64,000 nucleotides of DNA. Source: an uncultured Eubacteriales bacterium. Its GTDB lineage: Bacteria > Acidobacteriota > Aminicenantia > Aminicenantales > Saccharicenantaceae. Under the pieces are notes generated by a model, which was not told where the DNA came from, searched no databases, and saw nothing but the letters and a program-made list of their open reading frames with translations. This document shows positions 30,513 through 53,003 of this stretch, in pieces; the first letter of the stretch is position 1; every line of letters begins with the position of its first letter. Location of the stretch: the NCBI GenBank assembly GCA_964585685.1, contig CAZPEP010000044.1, positions 5,458-69,457 on the forward strand. Direction: 5' to 3'. Position numbers and translations under genes: made by a program.

Positions 30513-32195
<1,683 letters not shown>

Positions 32196-32204
32196 TCATA
32201 AAGG

Positions 32205-33068: not shown

Positions 33069-33069
33069 G

Positions 33070-35700: not shown

Positions 35701-36113
35701 TGCGCGACCTTCTTTTCGATGATGTCAGCCAAGCGCCCAGCTTCGCCCTCGAGCTGGTCCTTGAGCCGGCGGACCTGGTCCTCGATCTCGGCCTTAGCCT
35801 TCTCGATCCGGTCTCGGGCGTCCGCCTGGACCTCGGAGATGATTCGAGCCTTTTCCCCGAGGGCCTGGGCCTCGAGCTCCTCCCTGAGCCGTTCGGAGGA
35901 AGCCCGGGCCTCCTTAATCTCATCCTCGATCCGGCGGAGGTCCAGCTCGCCGGCCTCCAAGGCCTCCCGGGTCGCTTCTCTGTCCGCGGACTCGCTGGCT
36001 CGCCGTTTCTCCATGATCCGGCCCACAGGTTTGAAGAACACCCGGGTCAGGACGAGGACGAGGATCCAGACCAGGAGGAAGATGACGATGAACGTAAGAT
36101 CGATGGCCAACAT
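35697..36113 (-). CDS. ATP synthase Fo subunit b' (second b-type subunit)
   Basis: 138 aa. TM helix plus charged coiled helix. Precedes atpF with a 4-nt overlap. Confidence 0.7.
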   Translation of the reverse strand: MLAIDLTFIVIFLLVWILVLVLTRVFFKPVGRIMEKRRASESADREATREALEAGELDLRRIEDEIKEARASSERLREELEAQALGEKARIISEVQADARDRIEKAKAEIEDQVRRLKDQLEGEAGRLADIIEKKVAH

Positions 36114-36203
36114 GTCATTTTCCTGTCCGTAAGCGAAAAAAATGTAACATTTTCAGGCCGAAAAAGCAACTCGCCCCCCCGGCACCGCCCGTCCCGCCGG
36201 GGA

Positions 36204-38293: not shown

Positions 38294-38312
38294 GGTCCCT
38301 CTCTCGGCCGGC

Positions 38313-38810
38313 TCAGGCGGACACGTCTTTCTCTCGGACGGTTTTGTCCTTCGTCCGGGATGGCTTCGGCTTGATCTTCTGGGATAGGCCCTCGATGACA
38401 GCATCGGAGTCGGGGAGATCCTCTTCGATATCCTCCTCGTCGTGGAGGAGCTGCATGACCGAAGCGACGAACTTATCCGGGTCGACAGGCTTTTCAAAAT
38501 AGTCGGCGGCGCCGAAGGACGACAGGGCTTCATGCTTGTACTGGGGCCCCCTATAAAGCCCTGTGACGATGATCACCGGAACGCGCCCCCCCGACTCCTG
38601 GGAAATTTTCTTGGTCAGGTCGAAGCCGTGGATCTTGGGGAGGATGGCTTCCAAGACGACGAGGTCGGGCTTCTCGGACTTGAACTTATCGTAGGCCGCC
38701 TGCCCGTCCGCGGCCTTGATGATCTGGACCTTCTGCGTTTTCAGAAGCTTGACCATCGCCTCGAGGCTCACGCTGTCGTAATCGACGATGAGAACTTTTT
38801 TCCCGATCAT
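38313..38810 (-). CDS. Stand-alone receiver (REC) domain protein with Glu at the phospho-acceptor position
   Basis: MIGKKVLIVDYD ... KPDLVVLE(54)AILP ... VIIVTG ... FEKP. The canonical Asp of the LVVLD motif is Glu. Real start at MIGKK (about 38810). Confidence 0.7.
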   Translation of the reverse strand: MIGKKVLIVDYDSVSLEAMVKLLKTQKVQIIKAADGQAAYDKFKSEKPDLVVLEAILPKIHGFDLTKKISQESGGRVPVIIVTGLYRGPQYKHEALSSFGAADYFEKPVDPDKFVASVMQLLHDEEDIEEDLPDSDAVIEGLSQKIKPKPSRTKDKTVREKDVSA

Positions 38811-38963
38811 GGCGCACCGCGTCCGATTGTATTTAAATTGGTCACGGATGTCAACGAACCCCGGGGCCTGCGGCGGCAACATGACGGGTGCCAAGGGGCG
38901 TATGGCGGGAACGGGTGACATAGGATAAAATGGCCCTGGTAGACTCGGTATCGAGGGACAGGA

Positions 38964-40517
38964 ATGCACCAGGCTTCGCAAACGGGAGCGTATATTGAAG
39001 AGATCTATGGGAAGCTGCTCGGCCGCAAGCCCGATAAAGAAGGTCTGGCCTACTACACCGGCAGGCTGGATCGGGGCGAGCTGACCCTGCCGGAATTCGT
39101 ACGCCAACTGAAAAATTCAACGGAGTACTGGCTGCGCCGTTTCCCCGGGGATATCCCACGACGAACCCTGGAAAATACAGTACTGAACGACCGCGAGACC
39201 CGGGAAAAAAGAACCGTCCTACAGTCCCGGCCCTATATCTTTAACATCGACTTGATCGGGATCTGCAATATGATCCCGCCCTGCAGCATGTGTTACAATT
39301 GGAAAAACGGCGTGGGGCCGCGTCATCATCGCGGGCTGAAGATCAAAGAGATCAAGCGTTTCGGTGAGCACCTGGAGTTGGCCCACGAGGTGATCAACTG
39401 CGGCATCGGCGAGCCCCTTCTCAACCGCGAGTTGATCCCCATCCTGCAGCTTTTCTATAATTGGGGCAAACCCTTCGGCTTTAACACCAACGGCCTCGCC
39501 CTCAGCCCAGCCATGACCGAGCGTATGGTCCCGTATTTTGAGATTCTGACCATCCTCTTCTCCCTGGACGCCGCCACGGGGGAAACTTACGCTAAGGTCA
39601 GGGGCCGCTTTTTCGACCGCGTGGTGAAGAACATCGCCTATTATAGCGCCAGAAGGCGAGAAGTGGCGCCTGATGGGCTCGCCTCTAAGACCGGAATCGT
39701 TTTCATGCCCATGCGCTGTAACCGCCACGAGACGGCCGACTTTATCCGTTTAGGGGCTCGCCTGGGTGTCGACGTTGTAGAGCTCCGGGCTCTGAACCAG
39801 ATCAATGAAAACTGGGTCGTCCGTCGCGGCGACTTCACCTTTAACTACCAACAGGAGATTCTCACCCCGGCCGAACTCGAAGAGATCAGACAGGAGGCGG
39901 CGGAAGTCGCCGTCTCTGAAGGAGTTCGCCTGGATTGCCAGTATCAGGTATCCCCGGAGAGCACCTTTTTCTTTTTTATCCCGCCCCAATACCGGGATCT
40001 GGGCATCCGCTGCATCCTGCCCTGGCGTTTCATCCTGCCCTATCAGAACGGCAATACTGTCCCATGCTGCTTCATCTCTGACGATCTCGGCGACTGGCGC
40101 AAAACCGGCCTAGAAAAACTGTGGAACGGCCCGTTCATGCAGAAGCTGCGGGGCCAGATGGCCACGGGGAACCTGCCCGGTTTGTGCCGCCGTTTCCCCT
40201 CCTGCCCGGTGGTACAGGCCACGCTGTCCGAGGAAAAGCGCCTCCATTCCGGATCCGTTAGCCCGCCGGTCATTCCCCCGGCGATGGATATCTCCGCAAT
40301 GCAGCCGGCCTTGCGGATGAGGGCGTCGCAGAAGCAAACCTTTATGAAACATGCCGTCCATGCGTTGAGGAAACGCTTCAATTTGGAATTGAACCACAGC
40401 CTGGGCGAGCTGTTCGCACGCCAGGAGAAGATCAATCGCGACCTAGCCGAGGAGGTCGAACGCCTGAAGGCCGAGGTAGCGGAAGTGCGCCGGGAGAAGG
40501 ATAAACAGCAGGGCTGA
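38964..40517 (+). CDS. DUF4214 - radical SAM - SPASM-like domain protein with C-terminal coiled-coil module
   Basis: N-terminal DUF4214 signature (LLGRKPDKEGLAYYTGRLDRGELTLPEFVRQLKNSTEY). Cys cluster CNMIPPCSMC (CX5CX2C). C-terminal Cys-rich SPASM/twitch-like region (VPCCF ... CRRFPSCP). About 50-aa coiled-coil tail. Confidence 0.65.
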   Translation: MHQASQTGAYIEEIYGKLLGRKPDKEGLAYYTGRLDRGELTLPEFVRQLKNSTEYWLRRFPGDIPRRTLENTVLNDRETREKRTVLQSRPYIFNIDLIGICNMIPPCSMCYNWKNGVGPRHHRGLKIKEIKRFGEHLELAHEVINCGIGEPLLNRELIPILQLFYNWGKPFGFNTNGLALSPAMTERMVPYFEILTILFSLDAATGETYAKVRGRFFDRVVKNIAYYSARRREVAPDGLASKTGIVFMPMRCNRHETADFIRLGARLGVDVVELRALNQINENWVVRRGDFTFNYQQEILTPAELEEIRQEAAEVAVSEGVRLDCQYQVSPESTFFFFIPPQYRDLGIRCILPWRFILPYQNGNTVPCCFISDDLGDWRKTGLEKLWNGPFMQKLRGQMATGNLPGLCRRFPSCPVVQATLSEEKRLHSGSVSPPVIPPAMDISAMQPALRMRASQKQTFMKHAVHALRKRFNLELNHSLGELFARQEKINRDLAEEVERLKAEVAEVRREKDKQQG

Positions 40518-40556
40518 GCGATTGACTTTCCACGGGGCCTCTCATACAATCAGGCC

Positions 40557-40853
40557 ATGGAACGCCCGGAAATGCTTGCCCGCATTGCCGCGATCAAAGC
40601 CGAGGTCGACGCGGCCAACCCCGACATCATCCGCCGCCTGATCACCGGGCACCGCGTCTTCGTTCAGACATCGCACCGGGCCTCCCTTCCAGCCAGGCTG
40701 ATCAACAGCATCCGGCGGAAACTGCTCTTCGAGGTGGAGCGGGGGCTGGAGCCCGCGTTCGAGCGGCAGCGGGAGATCAACCTGCGCCTGCTCAAGGAGA
40801 TCGAGGCCCTTAAAGTGGCGCTGGAGCAAAAGGGGCATGGCGCCTGCGGCTGA
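40557..40853 (+). CDS. Small coiled-coil protein (98 aa) carrying the recurrent RQ-x2-IN ... EIE-x-LK module
   Basis: Same strand and operon context as flanking genes. C-terminal motif matches the tail of the preceding rSAM enzyme and the 43121..43648 protein. Confidence 0.45.
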   Translation: MERPEMLARIAAIKAEVDAANPDIIRRLITGHRVFVQTSHRASLPARLINSIRRKLLFEVERGLEPAFERQREINLRLLKEIEALKVALEQKGHGACG

Positions 40854-41925
40854 AGCTCGGGCCGAAGCCGGCCGCTCTCTGACCATCGCCGTCTGTGCGC
40901 CTCAGGTGCCTTTCGTCAGCGGCGGAGCCGAGGAGCACGTGGCCTCCCTGTGCCGGGAGTTGCGCGTCCGGGGTCACCGGGTGGAGCTGATCACCCTCCC
41001 TTACAAATGGTATCCCCGGGCCCAGTTATGGCGCAGCATGAAGATGTGGGAAATGGCCGACCTGAGCGAAGCGAACGGTCTCAAGATCGACCTGGTCATC
41101 GCCACCAAGTTTCCGTCCTATTTCGTTCACCACAGCCGCCAGGTGCTGTGGCTAATCCATCAATACCGTCAACTCTACGATCTCTACGGCACCCCGTATT
41201 CGGAATACACTCCGAACCGGTGGCGCGACCGTCGGCTCCACCGCCGCTTCGTGGCCCGCGATACAGCCGCGCTTGCCCGTTTTGCCAAACGTTTCACCAA
41301 TTCGGACAACACCCGGCAACGGATGTACAGATACAACGGGTTGGAGGCCGAGACCCTCTACCACCCCCCCAAGCTGGCCGATCGCCTTCAATGTCTGGAA
41401 TACGGCGATTACATTCTTTCGGTGGGCCGTTTGGACCAGCTCAAGAGGACCGAAGGCCTGATCCATGCTTTGGCGCGGACGAAGTCTGCGGTCCGGGCCG
41501 TGATCGCCGGAACCGGGCCCGAAGAGCACGGCCTCAAGCAGCTGACCCGTGACCTGGGCCTTACGGCGCGGGTGGAGTTTCCCGGATATGTCGATGACGA
41601 TCGTCTGATCGACCTTTATGGCCGCTGCCTGGCCGTTTTTTTCGCTCCGCTCGACGAGGATTACGGGTACGTCACCTTGGAGGCCTTCCTAGCCGCCAAA
41701 CCCGTTCTGACCTGCAGCGACTCCGGCGGGTCCTTGGAATTCGTGGCTCACGAACGGAACGGGTTCGTTCTGCCGCCCGGAGATTGGGCCGCGGCGGCTT
41801 CCTGCATCGACCGCCTCTACCGCGACCGTGAGCTCTGCCGGAGCCTGGGCGCAACCGGCAGGGCAGCGGTGAGCGCCCTCACGTGGGATCATGTGCTTAC
41901 CCGATTGCTGGAGGGAGCGGTATGA
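40837..41925 (+). CDS. Glycosyltransferase family 4
   Basis: GT-B fold. C-terminal EX7E-type region (TLEAFLAAKPVLTCSDSGGSLEFVAHERNGFV). Confidence 0.8.
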   Translation: MAPAAEARAEAGRSLTIAVCAPQVPFVSGGAEEHVASLCRELRVRGHRVELITLPYKWYPRAQLWRSMKMWEMADLSEANGLKIDLVIATKFPSYFVHHSRQVLWLIHQYRQLYDLYGTPYSEYTPNRWRDRRLHRRFVARDTAALARFAKRFTNSDNTRQRMYRYNGLEAETLYHPPKLADRLQCLEYGDYILSVGRLDQLKRTEGLIHALARTKSAVRAVIAGTGPEEHGLKQLTRDLGLTARVEFPGYVDDDRLIDLYGRCLAVFFAPLDEDYGYVTLEAFLAAKPVLTCSDSGGSLEFVAHERNGFVLPPGDWAAAASCIDRLYRDRELCRSLGATGRAAVSALTWDHVLTRLLEGAV

Positions 41926-43124
41926 AGATCGCCTGGTTCAGCCCGCTTTCCCCCGTACCGAGCGGTATCGCCGATTATAGCGAAGAGCTGCTGCCGAGCC
42001 TCGCCCGGCATGCGAGCATCGATATCTATATCGACCCCTCCTACACCCCGAGCAATGCCGGGATCGCCCGTTCTTTCTCCATCCGGCCGTTCGACCCGAG
42101 GGCTTTCAAGGCCGAGGATTATGACCGCATCGTGTATCATATGGGCAACGACTTCTTGGCCCACCGCTATATCCATGAAGCCATGCTGCGCTTTCCCGGG
42201 GTGGTAGTCCTCCACGATCTCGTGCTGATGGGCTTCTACGCCGCCCGCCAGGGTGCCGGCAGGGACTTCCCCGGCTTCATCCGCTTCCTGCAGCAGTTGT
42301 ACCCGGATAAAGCGGCTTGGATAGGAGAGCAGTGTGCCGGTCGCTACCCCTTTCCGCTCTGGGAAAGCAGGATGGCGCTGCAACTGCCGATGAACGAAGA
42401 GGTCTGCCGCCTGGCCGCGGGCGTCATCGCCCATTCCCATTACGTCATGGCACGGCTCTGGCTGCAGGACGGAAAACCCGCCGCCGTCATCCCCCACCAT
42501 GGCCACCCCACCCATCCCTTCGACCGGGAGGCGATTCGGGCCGGGCTCGGCGTGAAGCCAGAACAGATCTTCCTCGTCTCCACCGGATATGTCACCCGCA
42601 ATAAGCGCTATGGCCTGGTGTTGGACGTATTGAAGGAGCTGGGCCGGCCCGACCTGAGCTACCTGATCGTGGGCCGCGACGACGACGGCATTTTGCCGCG
42701 GATGCTGAACACCGGCCGGCCTGACGTGCAAACCCGGGGATTCGCGCCCTTGGCGGAGTTGGAACAGATGATCGCCGCCTGCGATATCGGCATAAACCTG
42801 CGCAATCCCACCATGGGCGAAAGCTCCGGATCTCTCCTGCGCATGATGAGCTACGGCCGGCCGGTCATCGTGAGCGACAGTGGTTCCTACAGCGAGATTC
42901 CCGATCATTGTGCCGTCAAGATCGATACCGGGATCGATGAAAAGGAAATGCTCAAAGATTTCATCGTTGCCCTGGCCGATGGCCCCGACTTGCGGGCCGC
43001 CCTGGGCCGCGAGGCGGCGCGCTATGCCGGCGAAACATGCGGCATCGACCGTTGTGCCGACATGTACGCAGCGTTTCTGCGCGACATGCAACCCGTGCGC
43101 CCGGCGCGGAGGGAACCTCGATGA
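41922..43124 (+). CDS. Glycosyltransferase family 4
   Basis: Start at MKIAWFS (41922; the ORF-track start is over-extended). GESSGSLLRMMSYGRPVIVSD donor-binding motif. Confidence 0.75.
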   Translation: MKIAWFSPLSPVPSGIADYSEELLPSLARHASIDIYIDPSYTPSNAGIARSFSIRPFDPRAFKAEDYDRIVYHMGNDFLAHRYIHEAMLRFPGVVVLHDLVLMGFYAARQGAGRDFPGFIRFLQQLYPDKAAWIGEQCAGRYPFPLWESRMALQLPMNEEVCRLAAGVIAHSHYVMARLWLQDGKPAAVIPHHGHPTHPFDREAIRAGLGVKPEQIFLVSTGYVTRNKRYGLVLDVLKELGRPDLSYLIVGRDDDGILPRMLNTGRPDVQTRGFAPLAELEQMIAACDIGINLRNPTMGESSGSLLRMMSYGRPVIVSDSGSYSEIPDHCAVKIDTGIDEKEMLKDFIVALADGPDLRAALGREAARYAGETCGIDRCADMYAAFLRDMQPVRPARREPR

Positions 43125-43648
43125 GCGAGATGAATCAGAACAAAACGGACATCAGCGGGAGGCTGCAGGGACTGCGCCGGGAATTCGCCCTCCGGGCGGA
43201 AGGGGCCGGAACCATCGAAGCCATTGCCGGCGGCCCGGTGGACCGCGATCTTCCGCCGGATTACTGGGGCTTTACCGATGAAGACTTGGAAAACGAACTT
43301 TGGAACCGCCTCCTCGAGTTGGACCGGGCCCCGCTTGACCCGGCTCAGGCCATGGATATCCCGCCCGGCAGCCTTTCACCGGCCAAGCACGGTCTATCGG
43401 GAAAGATCAAAGGCGGATTCAAGAACCTTCTGCTGCAGCTGGCCAAGCCCCTGGTGCGTATTACGCTGGCGAGGCAAGGCAATCTGAACCGCCAACTCGA
43501 ACACCTCCAATTCATCCAGTTCCTGGCGGTCAAGCAACTGCGTCAGCGCCTGCAGCGGCTGGAACGTGAGAATCGCGATCTGCGCTTCCGCTTGGCCGAA
43601 CTGGAAATCGAGAATGCCCCCGATGGAGAGACCTCCGGCCATGAGTGA
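43121..43648 (+). CDS. Coiled-coil protein (about 175 aa) with C-terminal recurrent module
   Basis: Start MSEMNQ overlaps the preceding GT4 stop as ATGA. C-terminal LARQGNLNRQLEHLQ ... RLERENRDLRFRLAELE coiled coil. Confidence 0.5.
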   Translation: MSEMNQNKTDISGRLQGLRREFALRAEGAGTIEAIAGGPVDRDLPPDYWGFTDEDLENELWNRLLELDRAPLDPAQAMDIPPGSLSPAKHGLSGKIKGGFKNLLLQLAKPLVRITLARQGNLNRQLEHLQFIQFLAVKQLRQRLQRLERENRDLRFRLAELEIENAPDGETSGHE

Positions 43649-45032
43649 GCGTTCCCCGGCCGAACGGCCGGCCCGACATGCTCCGGCAGGGCGGGTTTGG
43701 GAAAAGGCATTTCTGAAGCGGATCGCCGAACAGGGACAGGCGGGAACCTGGGAATACGCGCGGGCCATCACCGAGTGCCTGCAAACTTCGGTGGCGAGCT
43801 CCGACCTGTTGGACCGGATCGGCAACGCCATTGCCGATCGCGCAGGTCTTCGCACCGCCATCAATACCGTCGACCTCTGCCAGCTGCTGCTCGGACTGAG
43901 AAAGCCGCGCATCGCCATCTACGACCACACCTGGCAGTTCATCGGCGGGGCGCAGAAATACGGCGCCACGCTGGCCGAAGCCTTGCAGGATATGGGCGAG
44001 ATCACCTTGATCGGAAATCGCCCCTTCTCCACCGAGCAGCTGTCCGCCTGGTACCGGCTGGATCTCAAGGATTGCTCCAGCCGCCTGATAGCCCTCCCCT
44101 TTTTCGAGGAAAAGGGCGGTGATTATATCGATCCCGCCGAGATCGTCTCGCGCGCCATGGCCAATCCGTTTCATGCCGTCAGCCGGGCGACTCTGGGCTA
44201 CGACCTCTTCATCAACAATGGCATGTTGGAAATGGTCTTGCCCCTGGCCACCCGCTCTATCTTCATCACTCACTTCCCGGAACGGCGGGCGCGCAGCTAT
44301 TTCTACGTGGACCGCTACGACCGCGTTGTGTGCAACAGCCGCTATACCGCCGGCTGGATCGAAAAGCGTTGGGGGCTCGAACCCCATGTTCAAATCTATC
44401 CCCCCGTCGACATGCCGGGGCCGCGCCCTGAAAACAAGGAGCCGATCATCCTGTCGGCAGCGCGCTTCGATCCCGGGGGGAACAAGCAACAGCTCGACAT
44501 GATCCGCGTTCTTCAAGCGCTCATCCGCCGTCACGCCCGGGCCAGCCGCGGCTGGCGCTTGATCCTTGCCGGCGGCAGCCATGGCGATAACCCATATCTC
44601 CATCAGGTACAACAGTTCCTGACGGACAACCCTGGTCTGCCGGTGGAGCTGCGGGTGAACATCTCGGCGGCCGAGCTTCAGGAATTGTATCGCCGGGCCT
44701 CCCTGTTCTGGCATTTCTGCGGTCTGGGACAAAGCGACCCGGCCCTTGTGGAGCATTTCGGCATGACCGTTGCCGAGGCTATGCAGAGCGGCTGCATTCC
44801 CCTGGTCTTCGATGGCGGCGGCATGCGCGAGATCGTCCGATCCGCAGAGAATGGCTATCTTTTCTCAAGCCTCGTCGAATTGGTCGGCGTCACCGCCAGG
44901 CTGTTCGACAGGCCCGCGTTGCGTGCCAACCTGGCCGAGGCGGCCTGGAACGCCGGACGGGCTTTCGCTAAAGAGATTTTCGCCGGACGCGTGCGGGCCC
45001 TGGTCCGGGAGCTGCTGGCCCCGGCGCCATAA
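43641..45032 (+). CDS. Glycosyltransferase family 4
   Basis: Start MSERSP overlaps the previous stop as ATGA. EHFGMTVAEAMQSGCIPLVFDGGG motif. Confidence 0.75.
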   Translation: MSERSPAERPARHAPAGRVWEKAFLKRIAEQGQAGTWEYARAITECLQTSVASSDLLDRIGNAIADRAGLRTAINTVDLCQLLLGLRKPRIAIYDHTWQFIGGAQKYGATLAEALQDMGEITLIGNRPFSTEQLSAWYRLDLKDCSSRLIALPFFEEKGGDYIDPAEIVSRAMANPFHAVSRATLGYDLFINNGMLEMVLPLATRSIFITHFPERRARSYFYVDRYDRVVCNSRYTAGWIEKRWGLEPHVQIYPPVDMPGPRPENKEPIILSAARFDPGGNKQQLDMIRVLQALIRRHARASRGWRLILAGGSHGDNPYLHQVQQFLTDNPGLPVELRVNISAAELQELYRRASLFWHFCGLGQSDPALVEHFGMTVAEAMQSGCIPLVFDGGGMREIVRSAENGYLFSSLVELVGVTARLFDRPALRANLAEAAWNAGRAFAKEIFAGRVRALVRELLAPAP

Positions 45033-45114
45033 GCTACCCAAGGACACCCCTCTTTCAAGGCTCTGGCCTTTTTAGGATGGACTGGAGGCGGCTGTTTGTG
45101 CTATATTTTATAAG

Positions 45115-46083
45115 ATGAACATAACAGGACGGATAGAGATTTCCTTGGTCATCCCCGTCTATAACGAGGAGGAAAGCCTCCCCGAGCTTTATGAACAGCT
45201 CGGCCGGGTCTGCCCCGGCCTGGGGAAACATTACGAGATCATATTTGTCGACGACGGGAGCACCGATGGCTCTTTCGAGGTCCTGACGCGCCTCCGGGCG
45301 GGAGACCCGCGGGTCAAGATCATCCGGTTCCGGAGGAACTTCGGCCAGACGGCCGCCCTGGCCGCAGGGTTCGACAACGCCCGGGGGGAGGTCATCGTCA
45401 CCCTGGACGCCGACCTCCAGAACGATCCCGCCGATATCGCCGCCCTCATCGGGAAGATCGACGAAGGCTTCGACATCGTCTCGGGTTGGAGGAAAAACCG
45501 GAAGGACCGGTTCCTGTCCCGGAGACTCCCCTCCATCCTGGCGAACCGCCTCATCTCCCGATTCACGGGGGTCAAGCTTCACGATTACGGCTGCACGCTC
45601 AAGGCCTTCCGTAAGGAAGTCGTCAAGAACATCAGCCTCTACGGCGAGCTTCACCGGTTCATCCCGGCCATCGCCAGCACGATGGGCGTCTCCATCGCCG
45701 AGATCGAGGTCCGCCACCGGCCCCGCCTGAAGGGCAAGTCCAAGTACAATATCATGAGGACCCCCAAGGTCCTCCTGGACCTCCTAACGGTCAAGTTCCT
45801 CCTGAGCTATTCGACCCGCCCCCTGCAGATCTTCGGCCTGTTCGGCATGGCCGGCGGCCTGGCGGGCGGGGTCATGGGCCTCTGGCTTTCGTACGAGAGG
45901 CTCGTCCTCAAGCACAGTATCGCCAACCGGCCCCTGCTCCTCCTGGCTGTTCTGCTTGTCGTCATCGGCATCCAGTTCATCACTCTCGGCCTCCTGGCCG
46001 AGATCATGGTCCGCGCCTACCACGAATCCTCCGCTAAGAAGATCTACCACATCAAGGAAACCGTCGAATCCGACCGGCCATGA
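45115..46083 (+). CDS. GT2 polyprenyl-phosphate glycosyltransferase (ArnC/GtrB-like) with two C-terminal TM helices
   Basis: SLVIPVYNEEESL, DDGSTDGS and DADLQNDP (DXD) motifs. C-terminal membrane anchor. Preceded by an AT-rich promoter-like gap (45033..45114). Confidence 0.85.
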   Translation: MNITGRIEISLVIPVYNEEESLPELYEQLGRVCPGLGKHYEIIFVDDGSTDGSFEVLTRLRAGDPRVKIIRFRRNFGQTAALAAGFDNARGEVIVTLDADLQNDPADIAALIGKIDEGFDIVSGWRKNRKDRFLSRRLPSILANRLISRFTGVKLHDYGCTLKAFRKEVVKNISLYGELHRFIPAIASTMGVSIAEIEVRHRPRLKGKSKYNIMRTPKVLLDLLTVKFLLSYSTRPLQIFGLFGMAGGLAGGVMGLWLSYERLVLKHSIANRPLLLLAVLLVVIGIQFITLGLLAEIMVRAYHESSAKKIYHIKETVESDRP

Positions 46084-47246
46084 AGATCCTCATGCTCGCC
46101 CCCGAGCCGTTCTTCCAGCCTCGGGGAACCCCCATAAGCGTCTATTTCCGGAACGCAGCGCTCACCGCCCTCGGCCATGAAGTCGACCTCGTCACCTACC
46201 CCCTGGGCGAGGACGTAAAGATGGCCAATCTAAGGATCTTCCGCTTGCCGAACTTCCTCTGCCTCGGAAAGATCAAGATTGGCCCCTCTGCCGCCAAAGT
46301 CCCGCTCGACGTGGCCCTCACCCTGAAGGCCCTCGGCCTGATCCTCCGTTCGCGCTATGACCTCGTCTACTCCCACGAGGAAGCGGCTTTCCCCGGCATC
46401 CTCCTGAGCAAGCTCGCCCGTATTCCCCATCTCTACGACATGCACTCGAGCCTGCCCCAGCAGCTCGAAAACTTCGAGTTCACGAGATCGCCCCTGCTCA
46501 AACGGCTCTTCACCCGCATGGAGCGATTCATTCTCAGGAACTCGCACGCTGTCATCGTGATCTGCCCCGACCTCATGAACAAGGTCCGGGCCGAGGGCTT
46601 CGGAGACAAGACCATCCTCATCGAGAACGTCCTCGATTTCCCCGCCCCTGAAACCGGCCCGGGAGAGTTCGAGCTCATGAAGCGCGAACTGGCCCCCGGC
46701 GGCGAAAAGATCATCCTTTACGCCGGGAACTTCGGGCCTTATCAAGGTGTGTCGCTGCTCGTCGAAGCCGCGGCCCATATCCGGGAGAAGGCTATCCTCG
46801 TCCTTCTCGGCGGGAGCCCGGCCGAACGGGCGGAACTCGAGACCAAAGCCGCCGGGCTCGGCGTTGCGGACCGGGTCGTCGTCCTCGACAGGGTCGCCCC
46901 CACCCGCGTCCCGCTGTTCGTGAAGGCCGCCGACGTCCTCGTCTCGCCTAGGATGACGGGCACGAACACGCCCCTGAAGATTTATTCCTTCCTCAAGTCG
47001 GGCAAGCCGCTCGTCGCGACGCGGCTCTATACACACACCCAGGTCCTAGACGACACGATCTCCGTCCTGGTCGAGGCGACGCCGGAGGCCATGGCCGCAG
47101 GGTTGGATTTCGCGCTGACGGACCCGGAAGCGGGGCGGCGGGCCGCGGCGGCCGCGGCGCTCGCGAAGCGGGAATACACGTTCGCGGCCTACCGGGACAG
47201 GATCGTTCGATGTCTCGGGATGGCCATGGAGAACTTCGGGCGGTAG
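46080..47246 (+). CDS. Glycosyltransferase family 4
   Basis: GT-B fold; ILYAGNFGPYQG ... SPRMTGTNTPLKIYSFLKSGKPLVAT. Confidence 0.8.
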   Translation: MKILMLAPEPFFQPRGTPISVYFRNAALTALGHEVDLVTYPLGEDVKMANLRIFRLPNFLCLGKIKIGPSAAKVPLDVALTLKALGLILRSRYDLVYSHEEAAFPGILLSKLARIPHLYDMHSSLPQQLENFEFTRSPLLKRLFTRMERFILRNSHAVIVICPDLMNKVRAEGFGDKTILIENVLDFPAPETGPGEFELMKRELAPGGEKIILYAGNFGPYQGVSLLVEAAAHIREKAILVLLGGSPAERAELETKAAGLGVADRVVVLDRVAPTRVPLFVKAADVLVSPRMTGTNTPLKIYSFLKSGKPLVATRLYTHTQVLDDTISVLVEATPEAMAAGLDFALTDPEAGRRAAAAAALAKREYTFAAYRDRIVRCLGMAMENFGR

Positions 47247-47256
47247 GAGCCTTCGG

Positions 47257-48225
47257 ATGCAGGCATTCGTCACGGGCGCGTCCGGATTCATCGGGGCCCA
47301 TCTCGTCCGCCGCCTGGCGGCGGGCGGTTGGAAGGTCCGCGTTCTTGTCCATACGAGTCCCGTTTCTCTCGTCCCGGGCCTCGAGACCGTCTACGGCGAT
47401 ATCCGAGACCCCGGCTCCTGGAAGGAAGCCCTCGCGGGGACGAACGTCCTCTTCCATTTGGCGGCGGCCCTCGGCTCTTCCCGCCTCTCCGGGGACGAGT
47501 TCCTGAAGATCAACGCCCTGGGAACGGAAGCCCTCCTCGGGGCGGCTCAGGAAACCGGCGTCGGAAAGACCGTCCACGTCAGTTCGGCCGGCGTCATCGG
47601 TGCGGTCAAGCCCGGGGCGATCGCAGATGAAGGCATGTCTCCGAACCCCCGGAACGACTACGACCGGAGCAAGGTCGAGGCGGAACGGATCGCCATGGAC
47701 TTCGCGGGGCGCGGGATGGACCTCGTCATCGCCCGGCCCGGCTGGGTTTACGGACCCGGTGACCACCGGACCTTAAAGATCATCAAGGCCGTCGCCGACC
47801 GCCGGTTCGCCCTCGTCGCGCCGGACCACGGCCGGCAAACCCCCGTCTTCATCGGCGATCTTGTCGACGGCCTCCTGCTCGCGGCCGAAAAAGGAAAACG
47901 CGGGGAGATCTATCACCTGACGGGAGACGAGGTGCTCACGGTCCGCCGCATGGCCGCGGTCCTCGCAGACGCCTGCGGCGTCCCGGTCCCGAAGCTGCGC
48001 ATCCCCGTGCTTCCGGCGAAGCTCGCCGCCTGGGCGCTCGAAAAGGCCTTCGCGCCATTCGGGAGGGAAGCCCCGCTCAACCGGTCGAGGCTTGCCTTCT
48101 TCATCCACCCCAAAGCTCTGTCGAACGAAAAGGCCCGGCGCGAGCTCGGCTTCCGGCCGGAAGTCGATTTCCGGACGGGGATGGCCCGGGCGGTCGCCTG
48201 GTACCGGCAGCAGGGCTGGCTATAG
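47257..48225 (+). CDS. NAD-dependent epimerase/dehydratase (extended SDR)
   Basis: VTGASGFIGAHL Rossmann motif. YxxxK catalytic pair (YDRSK). Confidence 0.85.
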   Translation: MQAFVTGASGFIGAHLVRRLAAGGWKVRVLVHTSPVSLVPGLETVYGDIRDPGSWKEALAGTNVLFHLAAALGSSRLSGDEFLKINALGTEALLGAAQETGVGKTVHVSSAGVIGAVKPGAIADEGMSPNPRNDYDRSKVEAERIAMDFAGRGMDLVIARPGWVYGPGDHRTLKIIKAVADRRFALVAPDHGRQTPVFIGDLVDGLLLAAEKGKRGEIYHLTGDEVLTVRRMAAVLADACGVPVPKLRIPVLPAKLAAWALEKAFAPFGREAPLNRSRLAFFIHPKALSNEKARRELGFRPEVDFRTGMARAVAWYRQQGWL

Positions 48226-48383
48226 GCCGACCCGGTCCCGTCTCTAGTTCTTTTCACGGAAAAGAAGACCTCTTTTTCATCTGAATTTCCAATCTACCAA
48301 CCGAATCGAACAAGATATGAACACCACGGGGATTTGGGAGCATCAAACTAAAGTAAGGTTAGAGGCCTAGGATTCGGAGCTCG

Positions 48384-49139
48384 TCAGGCCCCGGGGTCGC
48401 GGCGGTCATGGATCTTGAGTTGGCGCACACCGCGGGCGAAGGAAAATTCGGGAACGGGCCCCGTGACCACCGACCCGGCTCCGACGACGCTGCTCCGGCC
48501 GACGGTGACGCCGTCGAGGACGAGGACGCCCGCCCCGAGCCAAACGTCGTCGTCGATCCGGATCCCGTTCTTCGAGAGCGACGGCTGGAACATGACGGGC
48601 TTCGCGAGGTCCGCAAAACTGTGGTTGCCGCCGGCCACGAGGTAGCAATTTCCGGCCAGGATGCAGTATTTCCCGAGGCGCACCTCGGTCTCCGAGAGGA
48701 TCGTGCAGTTGGCAGAGACGTTGCAGTAATCCCCCAAGTATATGGACCCTTCCTTGCAACTCAGGATGGCGTTCCGGCCGATGTAGGCGTTCTCCCCGAT
48801 GACGATGCCCTCGTTCGCCGAGCCCTTGGCGTCGAGGACCGCGCGGTCGTCGACGAATGTCCCAGCGCCGACACTGATCTTGTGGGGATGGCGGATAGTG
48901 ATCCCCCTGCCGAAGACGCACCCTTTCCCGACCGACTTGAAGAGGCACGGATAGAAGACCTTCCGGAGGAAATAGCCGAAGGCGCCCGGGGCGTCGGACA
49001 CGCACGACGTGACGAACTCATACTTGAGGAGGCTCCAGATTCCCTTCCGGCCAGGGAAGATCTCCATGTATTTAGCGGTCAGGGACCGGTCCCCTGCCAG
49101 GAGCTCCTTATGGATGCTGCCGCGGAATTCTTCGTTCAC
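48384..49139 (-). CDS. Hexapeptide-repeat (left-handed beta-helix) acetyltransferase, WcaF-like
   Basis: Repeated [LIV]-G-x-x-x-x hexapeptides (IGENAYIGRNAILS ...). Encoded antisense to the surrounding plus-strand GT operon. Confidence 0.8.
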   Translation of the reverse strand: MNEEFRGSIHKELLAGDRSLTAKYMEIFPGRKGIWSLLKYEFVTSCVSDAPGAFGYFLRKVFYPCLFKSVGKGCVFGRGITIRHPHKISVGAGTFVDDRAVLDAKGSANEGIVIGENAYIGRNAILSCKEGSIYLGDYCNVSANCTILSETEVRLGKYCILAGNCYLVAGGNHSFADLAKPVMFQPSLSKNGIRIDDDVWLGAGVLVLDGVTVGRSSVVGAGSVVTGPVPEFSFARGVRQLKIHDRRDPGA

Positions 49140-49191
49140 GCTCCACCTCTGTTCGTGATCCCGGCATCATTATAACACGGGGCCGAGCCGA

Positions 49192-50352
49192 TTGTCTTCG
49201 CAGGGGAAATATGGCATAAATAGGGGCGGAAACGCCGCCATGACGAGCCCCATCAACAACGACTGCGCCCATTTCCGCGGGGATAAGCCCTGCGGGTTCA
49301 AGCGTCTCTGCGGGGATTGTCCCGAATACGACCCTCTCGGCGCGCGGACGAAGGTCCTCGTCCTCAAGTGCCGGGCCCAGGGAGACGTCCTGAGGACGAC
49401 CGCCCTCCTGCCGGGTCTAAAGCGGAAGTACCCAAGGGGCCACGTCACCTGGCTCGTGGACGGCGAGAGCATCGATCTCCTGGTGGGCAATCCGCTCGTG
49501 GACGCCGTCCTCCCCTTCGGGTTGGAAGCGACCCTGCCGCTCGAGGTTCGGGAATTCGACGTCCTCGTCTGCCTCGATAAGGAACCGGGGATAGCGGCCC
49601 TCGCGACGAAGGTCCGGGCCGTACGAAAGTACGGGTTCGGGATGAACGCCCATGGGAACCTCTCGGCCTTCAACGATGCCGCGGCCTATGCCCTGCGGCT
49701 GGGGATCGACGACGACCTCAAGTACCGGACGAACCTGAAGACCTACCAGGAGATCGCGGCCGAGGCGGCGGAGGTCGAATACGCACGGGACGAATACGTC
49801 TACGAGCTCGGGGACGAAGAAAAGCGGAAGGCCCGGGAGTTCATGAAGACGCATGGCATCGACGCCTCCCGGCCGACCGTCGGGCTCAACACGGGCGCGG
49901 GAACGAAATTCGAGACCAAGCAATGGCCGGCGGAGCACTATCGGGAGCTCGTCCGCGGCCTGGCCGATGAGCTCGGCGCGAACGTATTCCTCCTTGGCGG
50001 ACCAAGGGAAGAGGCGCTTAACACGACCATCACCGCGGGGGCTCCGCCTCGGGTCTACAACACCGGAAACAGCCACTCTCTTCCCGACTTCGCCGGCTTT
50101 ATCTCCCTGATGGACGTCCTCGTCACCTCGGATACGCTGGGCATGCACCTGGCCATCGCCTTGAAAAAGAAAGTCGTTGCCCTGTTCGGCCCGACCTGCC
50201 CTCAGGAGATCGACCTCTATGATCGCGGCGTGAAGCTCTTCACGGGGGCCGCGTGCGCTCCGTGCTACAAACAGACCTGCCCGGATGCCGTCTGCATGAA
50301 GGGGATCCGGCCGGACCGGGTCCTCGAAGAGGTCGGGCGCCTTATCGCCTGA
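49192..50352 (+). CDS. Glycosyltransferase family 9 (heptosyltransferase-like) with Cys-rich N- and C-terminal extensions
   Basis: GT9 core (KVLVLKCRAQGDVLRTTALLPGLK ... TSDTLGMHLAIAL). N-terminal CX8CX5CX2C cluster. C-terminal CAPCYKQTCPDAVC. Start probably MTSPINN (about 49240). Confidence 0.75.
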   Translation: MSSQGKYGINRGGNAAMTSPINNDCAHFRGDKPCGFKRLCGDCPEYDPLGARTKVLVLKCRAQGDVLRTTALLPGLKRKYPRGHVTWLVDGESIDLLVGNPLVDAVLPFGLEATLPLEVREFDVLVCLDKEPGIAALATKVRAVRKYGFGMNAHGNLSAFNDAAAYALRLGIDDDLKYRTNLKTYQEIAAEAAEVEYARDEYVYELGDEEKRKAREFMKTHGIDASRPTVGLNTGAGTKFETKQWPAEHYRELVRGLADELGANVFLLGGPREEALNTTITAGAPPRVYNTGNSHSLPDFAGFISLMDVLVTSDTLGMHLAIALKKKVVALFGPTCPQEIDLYDRGVKLFTGAACAPCYKQTCPDAVCMKGIRPDRVLEEVGRLIA

Positions 50353-50357
50353 ACGTC

Positions 50358-51119
50358 ATGGCCGACGAACGCCGTCGCATCGTCGTGATGATCCCGACCT
50401 ACAACGAGGCGGAGAACATCGCCGGCCTCGTGCGCGAGATCCTTTCCCTACCGATGGGCGCCGACCTGAGCGTCCTTGTCGTCGACGACGACTCCCCGGA
50501 CGGGACCGGGCGCATCGCGAAAGCGCTGGGCCGGGAGGACGGCCATGTCCATGCCCTCATCCGGACGAAGCGGAGGGGCCGGGGGGCCGCCGGGATTGAC
50601 GGGTTCAAGGCCGCCCTGGCCCTCGCACCGGACTTCGTCGTCGAGATGGACGGGGACTTCTCCCACCCTCCTCGGCACATCCCGGAACTGGTCGCGGCCA
50701 TGGACCGGTATGATGTCGTCCTGGGTTCGCGCTTCGTTCCGGGAGGCCGGGATGCAGACCGGGGCCTCGTCCGCAGGTTCATCACCCTCCTTGTCCGCCT
50801 ATTCATCCGGAGGAAGTTCCGTTTCCAGGTGAAGGACGTTTCCTCGGGCTTCCGCTGTTTTCGGAGGGAGGTCCTCGAAGCCGTCGACCTCGACGACTGC
50901 ATCTCGGTCGGCCCGTCCGTCGTCCTCGAGGTCCTGTACAAGGCTTCCCTCCGGGGCTTCCGGCTCGGCGAGATTCCCATCGTCTTTGTCGACCGGAAGA
51001 AAGGGAAGACCAAGCTCGATCTCCTCACGCTCGTCGAGACCCTGGTAACGGCCCTAAGGATTGAGCGCCGCTTCCGGCCGGTCCCCGGGTCCTCCCGGGA
51101 GGGCCCTGGTCAGACATGA
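50358..51119 (+). CDS. GT2 polyprenyl-phosphate mannose/glucose synthase-like (DPM1-like, no membrane anchor)
   Basis: VVMIPTYNEAENI, DDDSPDGT and EMDGDFSHPP motifs. Start at MADERRR (50358). Confidence 0.8.
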   Translation: MADERRRIVVMIPTYNEAENIAGLVREILSLPMGADLSVLVVDDDSPDGTGRIAKALGREDGHVHALIRTKRRGRGAAGIDGFKAALALAPDFVVEMDGDFSHPPRHIPELVAAMDRYDVVLGSRFVPGGRDADRGLVRRFITLLVRLFIRRKFRFQVKDVSSGFRCFRREVLEAVDLDDCISVGPSVVLEVLYKASLRGFRLGEIPIVFVDRKKGKTKLDLLTLVETLVTALRIERRFRPVPGSSREGPGQT

Positions 51120-51943
51120 AAAGAACACGACGTCACGCCCTCGGCCAGCATTTTCTCGTCAACCGCTCCGTCCTCGACAAGATCGTCCGGACGATCGCCC
51201 CGGAGGCATCCGACGTCATCGTCGAGATCGGCCCGGGGAAGGGCGGCCTGACCTTCCTCCTCGCCGAGCGGGCGGGCCGCGTTATCGCCATCGAGAAGGA
51301 CCCGGCCTTCATCCCCCTCCTCAGGGAAAAGGCGGGCCCGAACCTGAGCGTCGTCGAGGCGGACATCCTCAAAACGGACTTCGTGAGCCTTCTCGAGGAC
51401 GCGGGCGGCGCGTTCGGACGGGCGAAGCTCGTCGGGAACCTCCCCTATTCCGTGTCCTCTCCCATCCTGTTCATGGCCCTCGCCGCCCACGCCATATTCG
51501 CGAAGTGCGTCTTCCTCATCCAGAAGGAGGTCGCCGAAAGGGTCTGCGGCCGGCCGGGCACCAAGGACCATGCGCCCATATCCATCCTCCTCCAGAATCG
51601 CTTCGAGGCTCGCATCGAATTCCGCGTCTCCCCGGGGTCCTTCTCCCCGCCGCCCAAGGTCGATTCGGCTCTCCTCTCCCTGACGCGCCGGGAAACGTCG
51701 CTCTTTCGCTTCGACGACGAGGACAGGTTCCGCGCCTTCCTCCGCGCGGCCTTCGCTCACCGCCGGAAGCTGCTCGCCAAAAACCTTGAAATGAGCGGCC
51801 TCCCCCGCGCCCGCATCGAAGCGGCCTACGGCGCCCTCGGGCTCGCCCGCAACGCCCGCGCCGAAGAGCTCCCCGCCAACCGCCTCGTCACCCTCTACCG
51901 CGCTCTTTACGAATCTCCGGACAGCGCTGTTCCAACGTCCTGA
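51116..51943 (+). CDS. rsmA: 16S rRNA (adenine1518/1519-N6)-dimethyltransferase
   Basis: LGQHFLVN and VIVEIGPGKGGLT KsgA signatures. Confidence 0.9.
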   Translation: MKRTRRHALGQHFLVNRSVLDKIVRTIAPEASDVIVEIGPGKGGLTFLLAERAGRVIAIEKDPAFIPLLREKAGPNLSVVEADILKTDFVSLLEDAGGAFGRAKLVGNLPYSVSSPILFMALAAHAIFAKCVFLIQKEVAERVCGRPGTKDHAPISILLQNRFEARIEFRVSPGSFSPPPKVDSALLSLTRRETSLFRFDDEDRFRAFLRAAFAHRRKLLAKNLEMSGLPRARIEAAYGALGLARNARAEELPANRLVTLYRALYESPDSAVPTS

Positions 51944-52025
51944 GAATGGGATCGCCTTCTCAATGGTCGATTGAATTGCGTGCCCGCTTTTTACATGTTA
52001 TAAATGACGGCGGGATATTACGTCC

Positions 52026-53003
52026 ATGACGAAGCTCGAGTACTACCGGAGGCTGTGGGCCATCTTCCGGGCCTACAGGAAGAGGGAAACGATCCTCCCC
52101 TATCTCCCCATCCGGCTCTGGATCGAACCGACGAGTTTCTGCAACCTCAAGTGCGTCATGTGCCCGAACAAGGACCTTGACCGGAGGGACAAGGGCTATA
52201 TGCCGCTCGAGCTCTTCCGGAAGATCGTCGACGAGGCCGCCGGGTTCGTCCACGAGGCCAACCTCATCCACCGAGGCGAATCCCTCCTTCACCCGGATTT
52301 CTTCGAGATGGTCCGGGCCGCGAGCGCGGCGGGGATCGTGACCAAGCTCCACACGAACGCCACACTCCTTGACGCAGACAAGGCCCATCGGCTTATCGAA
52401 GCGGGGCTCCATCAGCTGACCTTCTCCTTCGACGGCTACGACAAGGCCACCTACGAGCGCATCCGGGTCAACGGCACGTTCGAGAAGACCATCGAGAACA
52501 TCCGCAGCTTCCACCGGGTGCGGAAAGAGCTCGGGGCGAAGAGGCCGCGCACGATCCTGGAGCTCATCGATTTCCCCGATATCTACCGGAACGTCGGCCG
52601 GCAGGAAAAGCGGGCATTCCTCGAAAGATTCAAGGAATTCCCGCCGGACAGGATCCGGATCAAGGACATGCATAACTGGGCGGGCGATATCGGCGGACCG
52701 GGAAAGGGCCGGACGTACGCACCGTGCACGTTCCCCTGGGCGTCCCTCATCGTCTTCTGGGACGGCCGGGTCCTCCCGTGCACCCAGGATTTTTTCGGGG
52801 ACCTCGCGGTCGGCGACGCCGGCAAGTCGTCCTTGGCCGACATTTGGAACGGCGAGCGCATGGTCGAGATCCGAAAAAGGGCCGCCGAAGGGGATATCAA
52901 GGACCTCGCCCCGTGCTCGGCCTGCGACCGGCCCTGGCGGGAAACGTTCCTCGGGGTGCCCAGGGAATACATCTGGAAGCTCCTCCTGCGCCGGATGCCC
53001 TGA
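52026..53003 (+). CDS. Radical SAM / SPASM-domain protein
   Basis: Canonical CNLKCVMCP (CX3CX2C). C-terminal auxiliary-cluster cysteines (CTFPW ... LPCTQD ... APCSACDRP). Confidence 0.8.
   Translation: MTKLEYYRRLWAIFRAYRKRETILPYLPIRLWIEPTSFCNLKCVMCPNKDLDRRDKGYMPLELFRKIVDEAAGFVHEANLIHRGESLLHPDFFEMVRAASAAGIVTKLHTNATLLDADKAHRLIEAGLHQLTFSFDGYDKATYERIRVNGTFEKTIENIRSFHRVRKELGAKRPRTILELIDFPDIYRNVGRQEKRAFLERFKEFPPDRIRIKDMHNWAGDIGGPGKGRTYAPCTFPWASLIVFWDGRVLPCTQDFFGDLAVGDAGKSSLADIWNGERMVEIRKRAAEGDIKDLAPCSACDRPWRETFLGVPREYIWKLLLRRMP

Follow-up and report, generated by a model that had tools for sequence, protein, structure and literature searches.

The window analysed here is a stretch of 64,000 nucleotides of contig CAZPEP010000044.1 (assembly GCA_964585685.1), which belongs to a bacterium labelled as an uncultured Eubacteriales and placed by GTDB in the Aminicenantia. 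Between positions 38,313 and 53,003 it encodes a series of glycan-assembly enzymes accompanied by two radical S-adenosylmethionine (SAM) enzymes, referred to below as rSAM-A and rSAM-B. An earlier note, made from the sequence alone, had described this stretch as a single locus of ~15 kb. Comparison with related genomes reveals instead two glycan gene sets of different histories, namely a mobile six-gene cassette and a conserved block, each with its own uncharacterised radical-SAM enzyme that probably modifies a sugar. The first 6.2 kb form an accessory cassette that is absent from a close relative and has other flanks elsewhere, and the remaining 8 kb belong to a neighbourhood that is conserved phylum-wide together with the housekeeping genes accD, rsmA and ftsK. 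The gene inventory of the earlier note held up: every product was verified with hidden Markov models (HMMs), requiring only small coordinate corrections, and the products are indeed glycan-assembly enzymes. Synteny comparison likewise bore out that both radical-SAM genes accompany glycosyltransferases in relatives; neither sits with precursors of peptides that are made on the ribosome and modified after translation (RiPPs) or with sulfatases, the unrelated pathways with which such genes might have been kept.

The window has a G+C content of ~62%, and real genes were chosen by their third-position GC (GC3) and then checked with HMMs from Pfam and NCBIfam. Related loci or contigs are designated by L-numbers and homologous proteins by P-numbers. 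With NCBIfam, all matches of the two radical-SAM enzymes, of every family 4 glycosyltransferase (GT4), of the GT9 and of the short-chain dehydrogenase/reductase (SDR) stay below the model cut-offs, and no family model or paper gives a function for either radical-SAM enzyme, whose role had rightly been called undescribed.

A mobile six-gene cassette

Alignment with the close relative L008 by blastn delimits the cassette as an indel. Positions 35852-38858 and 45067-51897 of the window are collinear with L008 at 84% nucleotide identity, and L008 holds only ~70 bp in place of 38859-45066, a segment of 6.2 kb whose genes span 38964-45032. These genes, all on the plus strand, encode rSAM-A (38964-40517), the 98-amino acid helical protein sCC1 (40557-40853), GT4a (40837-41925; Glycos_transf_1, E 2e-30), the divergent GT4-like protein GT4b (41922-43124; weak matches to Glycos_transf_1, E 5e-7, and Glyco_transf_4, E 4e-3), the helical protein sCC2 of ~172 amino acids (43130-43648) and GT4c (43641-45032; Glycos_transf_1, E 4e-15), which carries an N-terminal extension of ~120 amino acids. 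The cassette comprises three GT4s and two small helical proteins in addition to rSAM-A. Successive genes overlap or are at most 40 nt apart, and all six proteins are predicted to be soluble, with no hydrophobic or membrane segment in any of them.

The cassette is found at 83-87% nucleotide identity in unrelated flanks on two metagenome contigs, namely L091, where it is flanked by a GT2 gene and tsaD, and L092, where it stands between lpdA and a gene for a sulfatase. In five of the six cassette genes GC3 is 0.71-0.77 versus 0.81-0.88 in the flanking genes, a difference of ~0.1. As a unit, the cassette recurs on more than ten contigs. The six-gene set is found in L002, L091, L092, L097, L103, L104, L105, L109 and L110 (sCC2 being undetected in L110), either collinear or with rSAM-A divergent from the other five genes; some short contigs hold partial copies, and L003 and L102 have variants of it. 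At the site that it occupies in the window, the cassette is present in only one (L079) of 80 Aminicenantes rSAM-B loci. The cassette is self-contained, translationally coupled and horizontally mobile. Its junctions, inspected by eye, display no obvious direct repeat and no integrase was found among the scanned open reading frames (ORFs), a repeat search and a tRNA scan not having been run. Because the cassette holds no initiating transferase, flippase or nucleotide-sugar genes, it would act as a decorating module on an acceptor made elsewhere.

rSAM-A and its link to glycosyltransferases

rSAM-A combines a DUF4214 domain, a radical-SAM core, a SPASM/twitch-like domain and a C-terminal helix (residues 459-516); its AlphaFold2 (AF2) model, with a predicted local distance difference test score (pLDDT) of 85, features an N-terminal helical DUF4214, the radical-SAM core and a terminal helix of 58 residues. 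The canonical CX3CX2C motif is replaced by CX5CX2C (C101, C107, C110; CN-x-x-P-x-C-x-x-C), invariant in 20 aligned homologs, which is why Pfam Radical_SAM misses the protein; the radical-SAM core fold and the glycine-rich SAM-binding motif are both present. A GEP motif and C146, C350, C368, C369, C408 and C414 are likewise invariant in this alignment. The C-terminal Cys residues are arranged as C350-x12-G-x4-C368 followed by C369, C408 and C414, an order that contains no CX2CX5CX3C and therefore departs from the seven-Cys SPASM motif (CX9-15GX4C...CX2CX5CX3C...C). Judged from these residues, the predicted auxiliary site fits one twitch-type cluster better than a full SPASM pair, though the protein passes the Pfam SPASM cut-off.

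The rSAM-A family is rare: from 5.8 billion proteins, a word-indexed search retrieved 115 clusters at E <= 1e-5, and not one of them is informatively named. A sister subfamily of ~600 amino acids (L121-L170, L171, L172), retrieved from one annotated Vicinamibacterales metagenome-assembled genome and otherwise from metagenome contigs, is stand-alone and has the same CX5CX2C spacing (CNVKPPCVYC); this motif hence marks a sizeable uncharacterised radical-SAM clade.

The link of rSAM-A to glycosyltransferases is strong, and three observations connect the enzyme with glycans. Its GT4 partners are conserved; in L089 (7400-9793), one protein joins a GT4 to a radical-SAM domain of the CX5CX2C type (CNINPPCVMC) whose SPASM part runs on in another reading frame; and a 2026 preprint reports that the RTX-DUF4214 protein Psh binds O-antigen and proposes that DUF4214 stabilises the complex on the pseudaminic-acid cap. 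The L089 fusion shares its locus with a second rSAM-A-like gene, the genes for the transporter subunits Wzm and Wzt (the latter with a Wzt_C domain), other glycosyltransferase genes of the GT2 and GT4 families, a GDSL gene and two B12-binding radical-SAM genes. The glycan link holds only for the rSAM-A clade at 44% identity or more, since ~50 metagenome loci of a distant subfamily (~30% identity) have no GT2, DUF2079 or block genes nearby.

The small helical proteins

Neither small protein belongs to a Pfam or NCBIfam family. sCC1 is homologous to the C-terminal tail of rSAM-A, with 40-42% identity over 74-84 amino acids to the tails of the orthologs P0021, P0022 and P0027. In L102 it is part of the enzyme, and genomes of the L002 type have a tail-less enzyme together with a separate sCC1 gene, a split-or-fused pattern which suggests that sCC1 works with rSAM-A. 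Conservation lies in the helical body of sCC1; the C-terminus is variable, without a conserved core rich in Cys, Ser or Thr, which, along with the split-or-fused pattern, argues against a RiPP precursor. The conserved core expected of a precursor beside its maturase was found in neither protein, sCC2 having no Cys. sCC2 displays a C-terminal coiled-coil-like stretch, and its orthologs lie between GT4b and GT4c on most cassette-bearing contigs.

For both small proteins, Pfam at E values up to 5 returned coiled-coil noise only and a word-indexed homolog search close orthologs only. An exhaustive phmmer search of 1.84 billion cluster representatives limits the sCC1 family to 15 small proteins, with no fusions to enzymes other than rSAM-A. 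The idea that the motif of the small proteins is widespread in O-antigen methyltransferases and transferases found no support in the exhaustive search and was dropped.

The conserved block and its neighbourhood in relatives

Positions 45115-53003 hold, in order, genes for an ArnC-like GT2, GT4d, an SDR, an acetyltransferase, a GT9, a DPM1-like GT2, RsmA and rSAM-B, a set that is found rearranged across Candidatus Aminicenantes. To quantify this neighbourhood, we considered the 51 Aminicenantes loci with at least 6 kb of flank upstream of rSAM-B. At least one block ortholog lies within the flank in 47/51 loci, the ArnC-like GT2 being the most frequent (37 loci), followed by rsmA (35), the GT9 and the DPM1-like GT2 (29 each, and paired in 29), the acetyltransferase (27), GT4d (26) and the SDR (25). 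When rsmA does not stand immediately upstream of rSAM-B, the nearest recognised upstream gene is a block glycan gene in 21 of 24 loci.

The arrangement varies. One type is that of the window; another has a PMT_2 glycosyltransferase gene of the GT-C fold and an ArnC paralog upstream of the string GT9-GT2-rsmA-rSAM-B; in further types, rSAM-B comes after, or is divergent from, the trio ArnC-like GT2-GT4d-SDR, and rsmA is elsewhere. L005 and L071 are relatives with GT-C genes of the PMT_2 type in this neighbourhood. In L071 the start of rSAM-B overlaps the stop of an upstream SDF-family transporter gene, and a sulfatase-family gene and the PMT_2 GT-C gene follow downstream. Many records labelled 'uncultured Eubacteriales' share the block gene order. 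The conserved block is not a variable locus of the O-antigen type. In many relatives (L006, L007, L071), a gene for an SDF-family sodium:dicarboxylate symporter, missing from the window, stands between the SDR or the ArnC-like GT2 and rSAM-B.

The ArnC-like GT2 (45115-46083, plus strand; Pfam E 1e-37) is of the ArnC/GtrB polyprenyl-phosphate type with a C-terminal membrane anchor (hydrophobic segment 266-301). It aligns with the ArnC structures of the PDB along their entire length (E 1e-65) and matches GtrB with E 1e-40; the ArnC model NF007986 gives 250 bits for a cut-off of 529, and the partners ArnA, ArnB, ArnD and ArnT are missing, the window encoding neither a formyltransferase-decarboxylase nor an aminotransferase, a deformylase or ArnT. 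GT4d (46080-47246, plus strand) is WcaI/stp3-like by HMM and in relatives accompanies the ArnC-like GT2 and the SDR. This last enzyme is an extended, HpnA-like SDR (47257-48225, plus strand; Epimerase, E 9e-35; TIGR03466 HpnA, 186 bits for a cut-off of 368) with the nucleotide-sugar epimerase/dehydratase/reductase fold and dTDP-glucose 4,6-dehydratase as its best PDB match (E 4e-31). The hexapeptide-repeat sugar O-acetyltransferase (48384-49139, minus strand; Hexapep, E 5e-14) is WcaF/WbbJ-like and remains below cut-off for the WcaF subfamily (E 2e-21).

The heptosyltransferase-like GT9 (49240-50352, plus strand) passes Glyco_transf_9 clearly (E 7e-27; 94.8 bits, cut-off 22) and matches 3tov, WaaF and WaaC in the PDB, with scores below the heptosyltransferase equivalog cut-offs (TIGR02193, 77.8 versus 185.3; TIGR02195, 75.1 versus 134.6). 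Eight Cys (C9, C18, C24 and C27; C339, C342, C347 and C352) are invariant in 36/36 Aminicenantes orthologs. The two 4-Cys sites bracket the heptosyltransferase-like fold, outside the regions aligning to WaaC and WaaF, and likely bind zinc or iron. The DPM1-like GT2 (50358-51119, plus strand; Glycos_transf_2, E 1e-26), of the polyprenyl-phosphate hexose synthase type, is soluble, with no transmembrane segment, and its best solved match is the catalytic domain of the Pyrococcus dolichol-phosphate mannose synthase (E 1e-31). The start of rsmA/ksgA (51116-51943, plus strand; 16S rRNA dimethyltransferase, TIGR00755, 227.9 bits for a cut-off of 171) overlaps the stop of the DPM1-like gene by 4 nt, and rsmA is a housekeeping passenger in the block.

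Two further genes frame the 38-53 kb stretch. Position 38313, taken by the earlier note as the start of the locus, is the stop end of a minus-strand gene (38313-38810, start refined to the ATG at 38810) that its list omitted. This gene encodes a stand-alone response-regulator receiver protein (Pfam Response_reg, E 4e-21), which is a left boundary and not a glycan enzyme, and the order accD, response regulator, ArnC-like GT2 recurs in Aminicenantes. On the right, rSAM-B is followed, in the window as in close relatives, by a gene (53040-54989, plus strand) for a 649-amino acid protein with a C-terminal SGNH/GDSL hydrolase domain (Lipase_GDSL_2, E 7e-26), whose N-terminal 347 residues have no family match; ftsK comes next.

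rSAM-B

rSAM-B (52026-53003, plus strand) is a protein of 325 amino acids with a canonical CX3CX2C motif (C39, C43, C46) and a four-Cys twitch-type domain (Pfam Radical_SAM, E 6e-21; SPASM, E 8e-14). C234, C252, C297 and C300 are invariant, with the spacing C-x17-C-x44-C-x2-C, nearly that of BtrN. With only these four conserved C-terminal Cys, the protein lacks the seven-Cys SPASM motif despite passing the Pfam SPASM cut-off, and the Cys count would fit a twitch-type domain with one cluster.

A profile search of all PDB sequences placed BtrN first (E 2e-19, covering the core and residues 226-302) and BlsE second. Foldseek with the AF2 model (pLDDT 86) also returned BtrN first (E 4e-14; template modelling (TM) score 0.71 on BtrN), followed by DesII, SuiB and BlsE. 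In its four-Cys domain and overall fold, rSAM-B is thus of the BtrN twitch type, the identity of ~19% between the two being too low for claiming orthology. The substrate of BtrN is an aminocyclitol, one secondary alcohol of which it oxidises to a ketone.

The orthologs of rSAM-B form a tight group, constant at 325 amino acids, with more than 1000 clusters at E <= 1e-10 and at least 48% identity across the phylum. Relatives in species-representative genomes are almost all Candidatus Aminicenantes, the closest having 94% and 87% identity, and an identical sequence occurs on a metagenome contig from JGI. A distant relative in L173 (9289-12990) provides a single example in which a small GT2, a radical-SAM/SPASM protein of 353 amino acids with the canonical motif and a DUF2079 membrane protein are encoded by overlapping genes; this trio looks like a three-gene unit with the radical-SAM enzyme in the middle.

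Transport and heptose genes elsewhere in the window

The earlier note had also pointed to Wzm, a Wzt with a C-terminal carbohydrate-binding domain, RfaE-II and a second GT9 at 6 kb, all of which are present, 10-30 kb from the block. A minus-strand operon wzm-wzt-rfaE domain II (27191-29772) encodes Wzm (28957-29772; ABC2_membrane, E 2e-15), Wzt (27676-28956; ABC_tran and Wzt_C, E 1e-30) and RfaE domain II (~27191-27670), which scores 178.9 bits with TIGR02199 for a cut-off of 181.5. With RfaE-II, the organism can probably make ADP-heptose; nothing connects this step to rSAM-A or rSAM-B. A methyltransferase gene (29769-30512, minus strand) heads the string and has a full-length match to TrmN, the yfiC product (E 1.5e-14). 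It was considered as a glycan-capping enzyme and rejected, the match to this tRNA methylase being the more likely explanation.

Between uppP (bacA) and rfaE-II, a gene at 26103-27155 encodes a Memo-like homolog of AmmeMemoRadiSam system protein B that starts with a hydrophobic leader; the window ORFs scanned did not include its usual radical-SAM partner. The second GT9 (5972-7084, minus strand), assigned by HMM, does not reach the heptosyltransferase equivalog cut-offs. Its gene forms a divergent pair with one for a flippase-like membrane protein of the LPG_synthase_TM/HpnL type (7165-8151), and genes for M23 and S41 peptidases and a divergent polysaccharide deacetylase gene follow this pair.

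Proposed roles

Our best explanation, to which we give a probability of roughly 0.55, is that the stretch comprises two glycan gene sets of different histories, each with its own radical-SAM tailoring enzyme. The substrates, chemistry and cellular target that we infer below build on the observed gene identities, indel, gene orders, fusions, Cys motifs and structural neighbours. The cassette would work at the cytoplasmic face, adding up to three sugars to a lipid-linked glycan or glycoconjugate core made elsewhere, after which rSAM-A would carry out one radical-mediated change on a sugar. DUF4214 may be the glycan-recognition module of rSAM-A, and the C-terminal helix of the enzyme, sCC1 and sCC2 may be assembly or scaffold elements that tie it to the transferases.

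In the conserved block, the ArnC-like and DPM1-like GT2s would load sugars onto polyprenyl phosphate, and the GT4, the SDR, the O-acetyltransferase and the putative metal-binding GT9 would build and tailor the product. rSAM-B would most likely abstract hydrogen at the carbinol carbon of a sugar, which would yield a keto sugar. A sugar-oxidising role is the most economical assignment because the enzyme is BtrN-like and DesII and BlsE rank high among its structural matches. The keto sugar could be the first half of an oxidation, an epimerisation or an amination, and the neighbouring SDR could reduce it, resulting in a net epimerisation, unless it is converted by another route.

Several observations weigh against this explanation. 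On the side of rSAM-A, SuiB and SkfB, the structural matches that rank first and second, are RiPP maturases, no GT4 lies near the orthologs in L088, L107, L090 and possibly L106, and the CX5CX2C sister subfamily of ~600 amino acids has no glycan genes nearby. No initiating transferase, flippase or GT-C adjoins either gene set in the window. For rSAM-B, orthologs are almost confined to Aminicenantes, so that its linkage to glycan genes could be followed within this phylum only; rsmA is its commonest immediate upstream neighbour (27/51 loci); and accD, the response-regulator gene, ftsK and an HD-domain gene are retained in the same region, so that, with all data coming from one phylum, the linkage could be inherited gene order.

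Alternative readings

These last points lead to the alternative that survives best, which we nevertheless consider unlikely: rSAM-B might be unrelated to glycans and be a conserved housekeeping enzyme of Aminicenantes, serving, for example, a cofactor, a lipid or an RNA modification and placed where it is by conserved gene order. Besides the rsmA neighbour and the persisting accD, ftsK and HD-domain genes, a single tight ortholog group of constant length is what a core function would be expected to give, and the overlap in L071 is with a transporter gene, not a glycan gene. However, the closest solved relatives of the enzyme (BtrN, DesII, BlsE) act on sugars or cyclitols; where it is parted from rsmA, rSAM-B stays by the ArnC-like GT2/GT4/SDR trio or the acetyltransferase, and PMT_2 GT-C genes are nearby in relatives.

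The model proposed by the earlier note appears improbable. It joined the 38-53 kb stretch, the Wzm, Wzt and RfaE-II genes and the second GT9 into one ABC-transporter-dependent pathway for a heptose-containing capped glycan, with the radical-SAM enzymes epimerising or capping. The presence of Wzm and of a Wzt with Wzt_C, an RfaE-II at the family cut-off and two GT9 genes in the window are all consistent with it, as are the rSAM-A-like genes of L089, which directly adjoin Wzm and Wzt with Wzt_C, and the cassette's lack of its own flippase or polymerase, which fits chain growth at the cytoplasmic face. In the window, however, ~9 kb with the F1Fo ATP-synthase operon, folC and accD (30756-38533) stand between the transporter operon and the block; an ABC-transporter-dependent O-polysaccharide system would bring transporter, glycosyltransferases and terminator together in one locus, but here transporter and glycosyltransferases are apart and no terminator was identified. 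Further, a close relative lacks the cassette and retains the rest, the cassette turns up at other sites that lack these neighbours, the block of 8 kb is kept phylum-wide, which O-antigen loci are not, and the methyltransferase beside wzm resembles TrmN. Membership of GT9 does not show that heptose is transferred, and neither GT9 attains the equivalog cut-offs for heptosyltransferases.

It is very unlikely that the cassette is a peptide- or protein-modifying system in which rSAM-A acts on sCC1, sCC2 or another protein and the GT4s glycosylate the product, since, even with SuiB and SkfB as best structural matches of rSAM-A, a small ORF directly after its gene and a weak match of GT4a to TIGR04157 (Bacteroidetes glycosyltransferases named for their radical-SAM association, a family that presumably belongs to a peptide system), sCC1 resembles the enzyme's own tail, to which it is fused in some genomes, and is conserved in the helical body and not at the C-terminus, BlsE and DesII score nearly as high as the RiPP maturases in the structure comparison, the L089 locus has a GT4 fusion and Wzm/Wzt neighbours, and no protease, exporter or RiPP recognition element was detected.

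Relation to known systems

The explanation by two gene sets, each with a tailoring enzyme, can be compared with several characterised systems. rSAM-B and BtrN, the 2-deoxy-scyllo-inosamine dehydrogenase of butirosin biosynthesis, are both small single-chain enzymes with one four-Cys auxiliary cluster (predicted in rSAM-B), but rSAM-B is 75 amino acids longer, with an N-terminal helix and a C-terminal extension, and lies in an envelope-glycan neighbourhood of an anaerobic phylum, whereas BtrN belongs to an aminoglycoside cluster. For rSAM-A, the relevant comparison is HcgA of FeGP-cofactor biosynthesis, which has been described as unique in its CX5CX2C motif and yet cleaves SAM (PMC10100467). 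rSAM-A and its whole clade share this motif, and HcgA shows that such a spacing can bind a cluster and cleave SAM. The maturases SuiB, SkfB and anSME differ from rSAM-A, whose N-terminus is a DUF4214 and not a RiPP recognition element, whose partners are GT4s and near which no precursor with a conserved core was found.

In ABC-transporter-dependent O-antigen synthesis, chain control is exerted by WbdD, a kinase-methyltransferase, together with WbdA. Like WbdD, rSAM-A is a soluble tailoring enzyme with a long C-terminal helix and GT4 partners, and a Wzt with a carbohydrate-binding domain is encoded in the genome and, in L089, adjacent; unlike WbdD, it is a radical-SAM enzyme whose part in interaction, capping or length control is hypothetical, and the transporter genes of the window lie apart from its gene. 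Three-component systems for extracytoplasmic glycosylation rely on a GtrB/ArnC-type synthase, a flippase and a GT-C, with an SDR epimerase setting the identity of the added sugar, and epimerisation of donor sugars by oxidation and subsequent reduction is established for DprE1/DprE2 (PMC11127046). The block resembles such systems in its two GT2s of the polyprenyl-phosphate synthase type and its SDR, with PMT_2 GT-C genes nearby in relatives; it differs in that it has no flippase or GT-C in the window, and we found no precedent for a radical-SAM enzyme in the oxidising role.

A bolder version of our proposal, to which we attach little probability, would make radical-SAM chemistry a regular part of envelope-glycan assembly in this phylum. 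rSAM-A would then sit on a polymerase of three GT4s as WbdD does on WbdA, placed there by its coiled-coil tail together with sCC1 and sCC2, with DUF4214 binding the growing chain and a terminal modification or cap, added by the enzyme, being read by the Wzt domain. rSAM-B would be an oxygen-independent counterpart of DprE1, oxidising a sugar carried by polyprenyl phosphate or by a nucleotide to a keto intermediate from which the SDR would make an epimer.

Our literature searches on radical SAM/SPASM enzymes with glycosyltransferase, polysaccharide, O-antigen or capsular polysaccharide found no characterised precedent; an older observation places a radical-SAM gene beside a glycosyltransferase in a Brachyspira plasmid gene block (PMC4267127). 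Sugar-acting radical-SAM enzymes are known from antibiotic pathways (BtrN, DesII, BlsE), and we found no characterised case in the tailoring of cell-envelope glycans. The window offers two candidates: a compact six-gene cassette with the rare CX5CX2C motif and DUF4214, and a BtrN-like enzyme found phylum-wide beside polyprenyl-phosphate sugar synthases. The cassette is the more tractable and the more unusual part. If either enzyme acts as proposed, it would represent an oxygen-independent route to surface-sugar diversity and could provide functions for DUF4214 and a large unannotated radical-SAM clade. If not, the locus is still a composite, and much of its apparent clustering is gene order conserved within the phylum.

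Other features of the window

The Rfam scan of the whole window returned no non-coding RNA, and neither an initiating phosphoglycosyltransferase of the WecA/WbaP type nor a GT-C was found among the window ORFs scanned. Promoter and terminator scans gave consensus-level matches only, among them sites ahead of the genes for the ArnC-like GT2, rSAM-B and the GDSL protein, and were not relied on. Towards the left end, a minus-strand gene at 1170-4178 encodes a 1002-amino acid protein with TPR-like repeats and a C-terminus that by eye looks like a CHAT protease; with a G+C content of 0.515 versus ~0.62, this gene may be of foreign origin. Finally, four paralogs of SurA/PpiC-type peptidyl-prolyl isomerases lie within 13 kb (12207-14155, 21652-22665, 24203-25222), two of which flank mfd (14152-17589).

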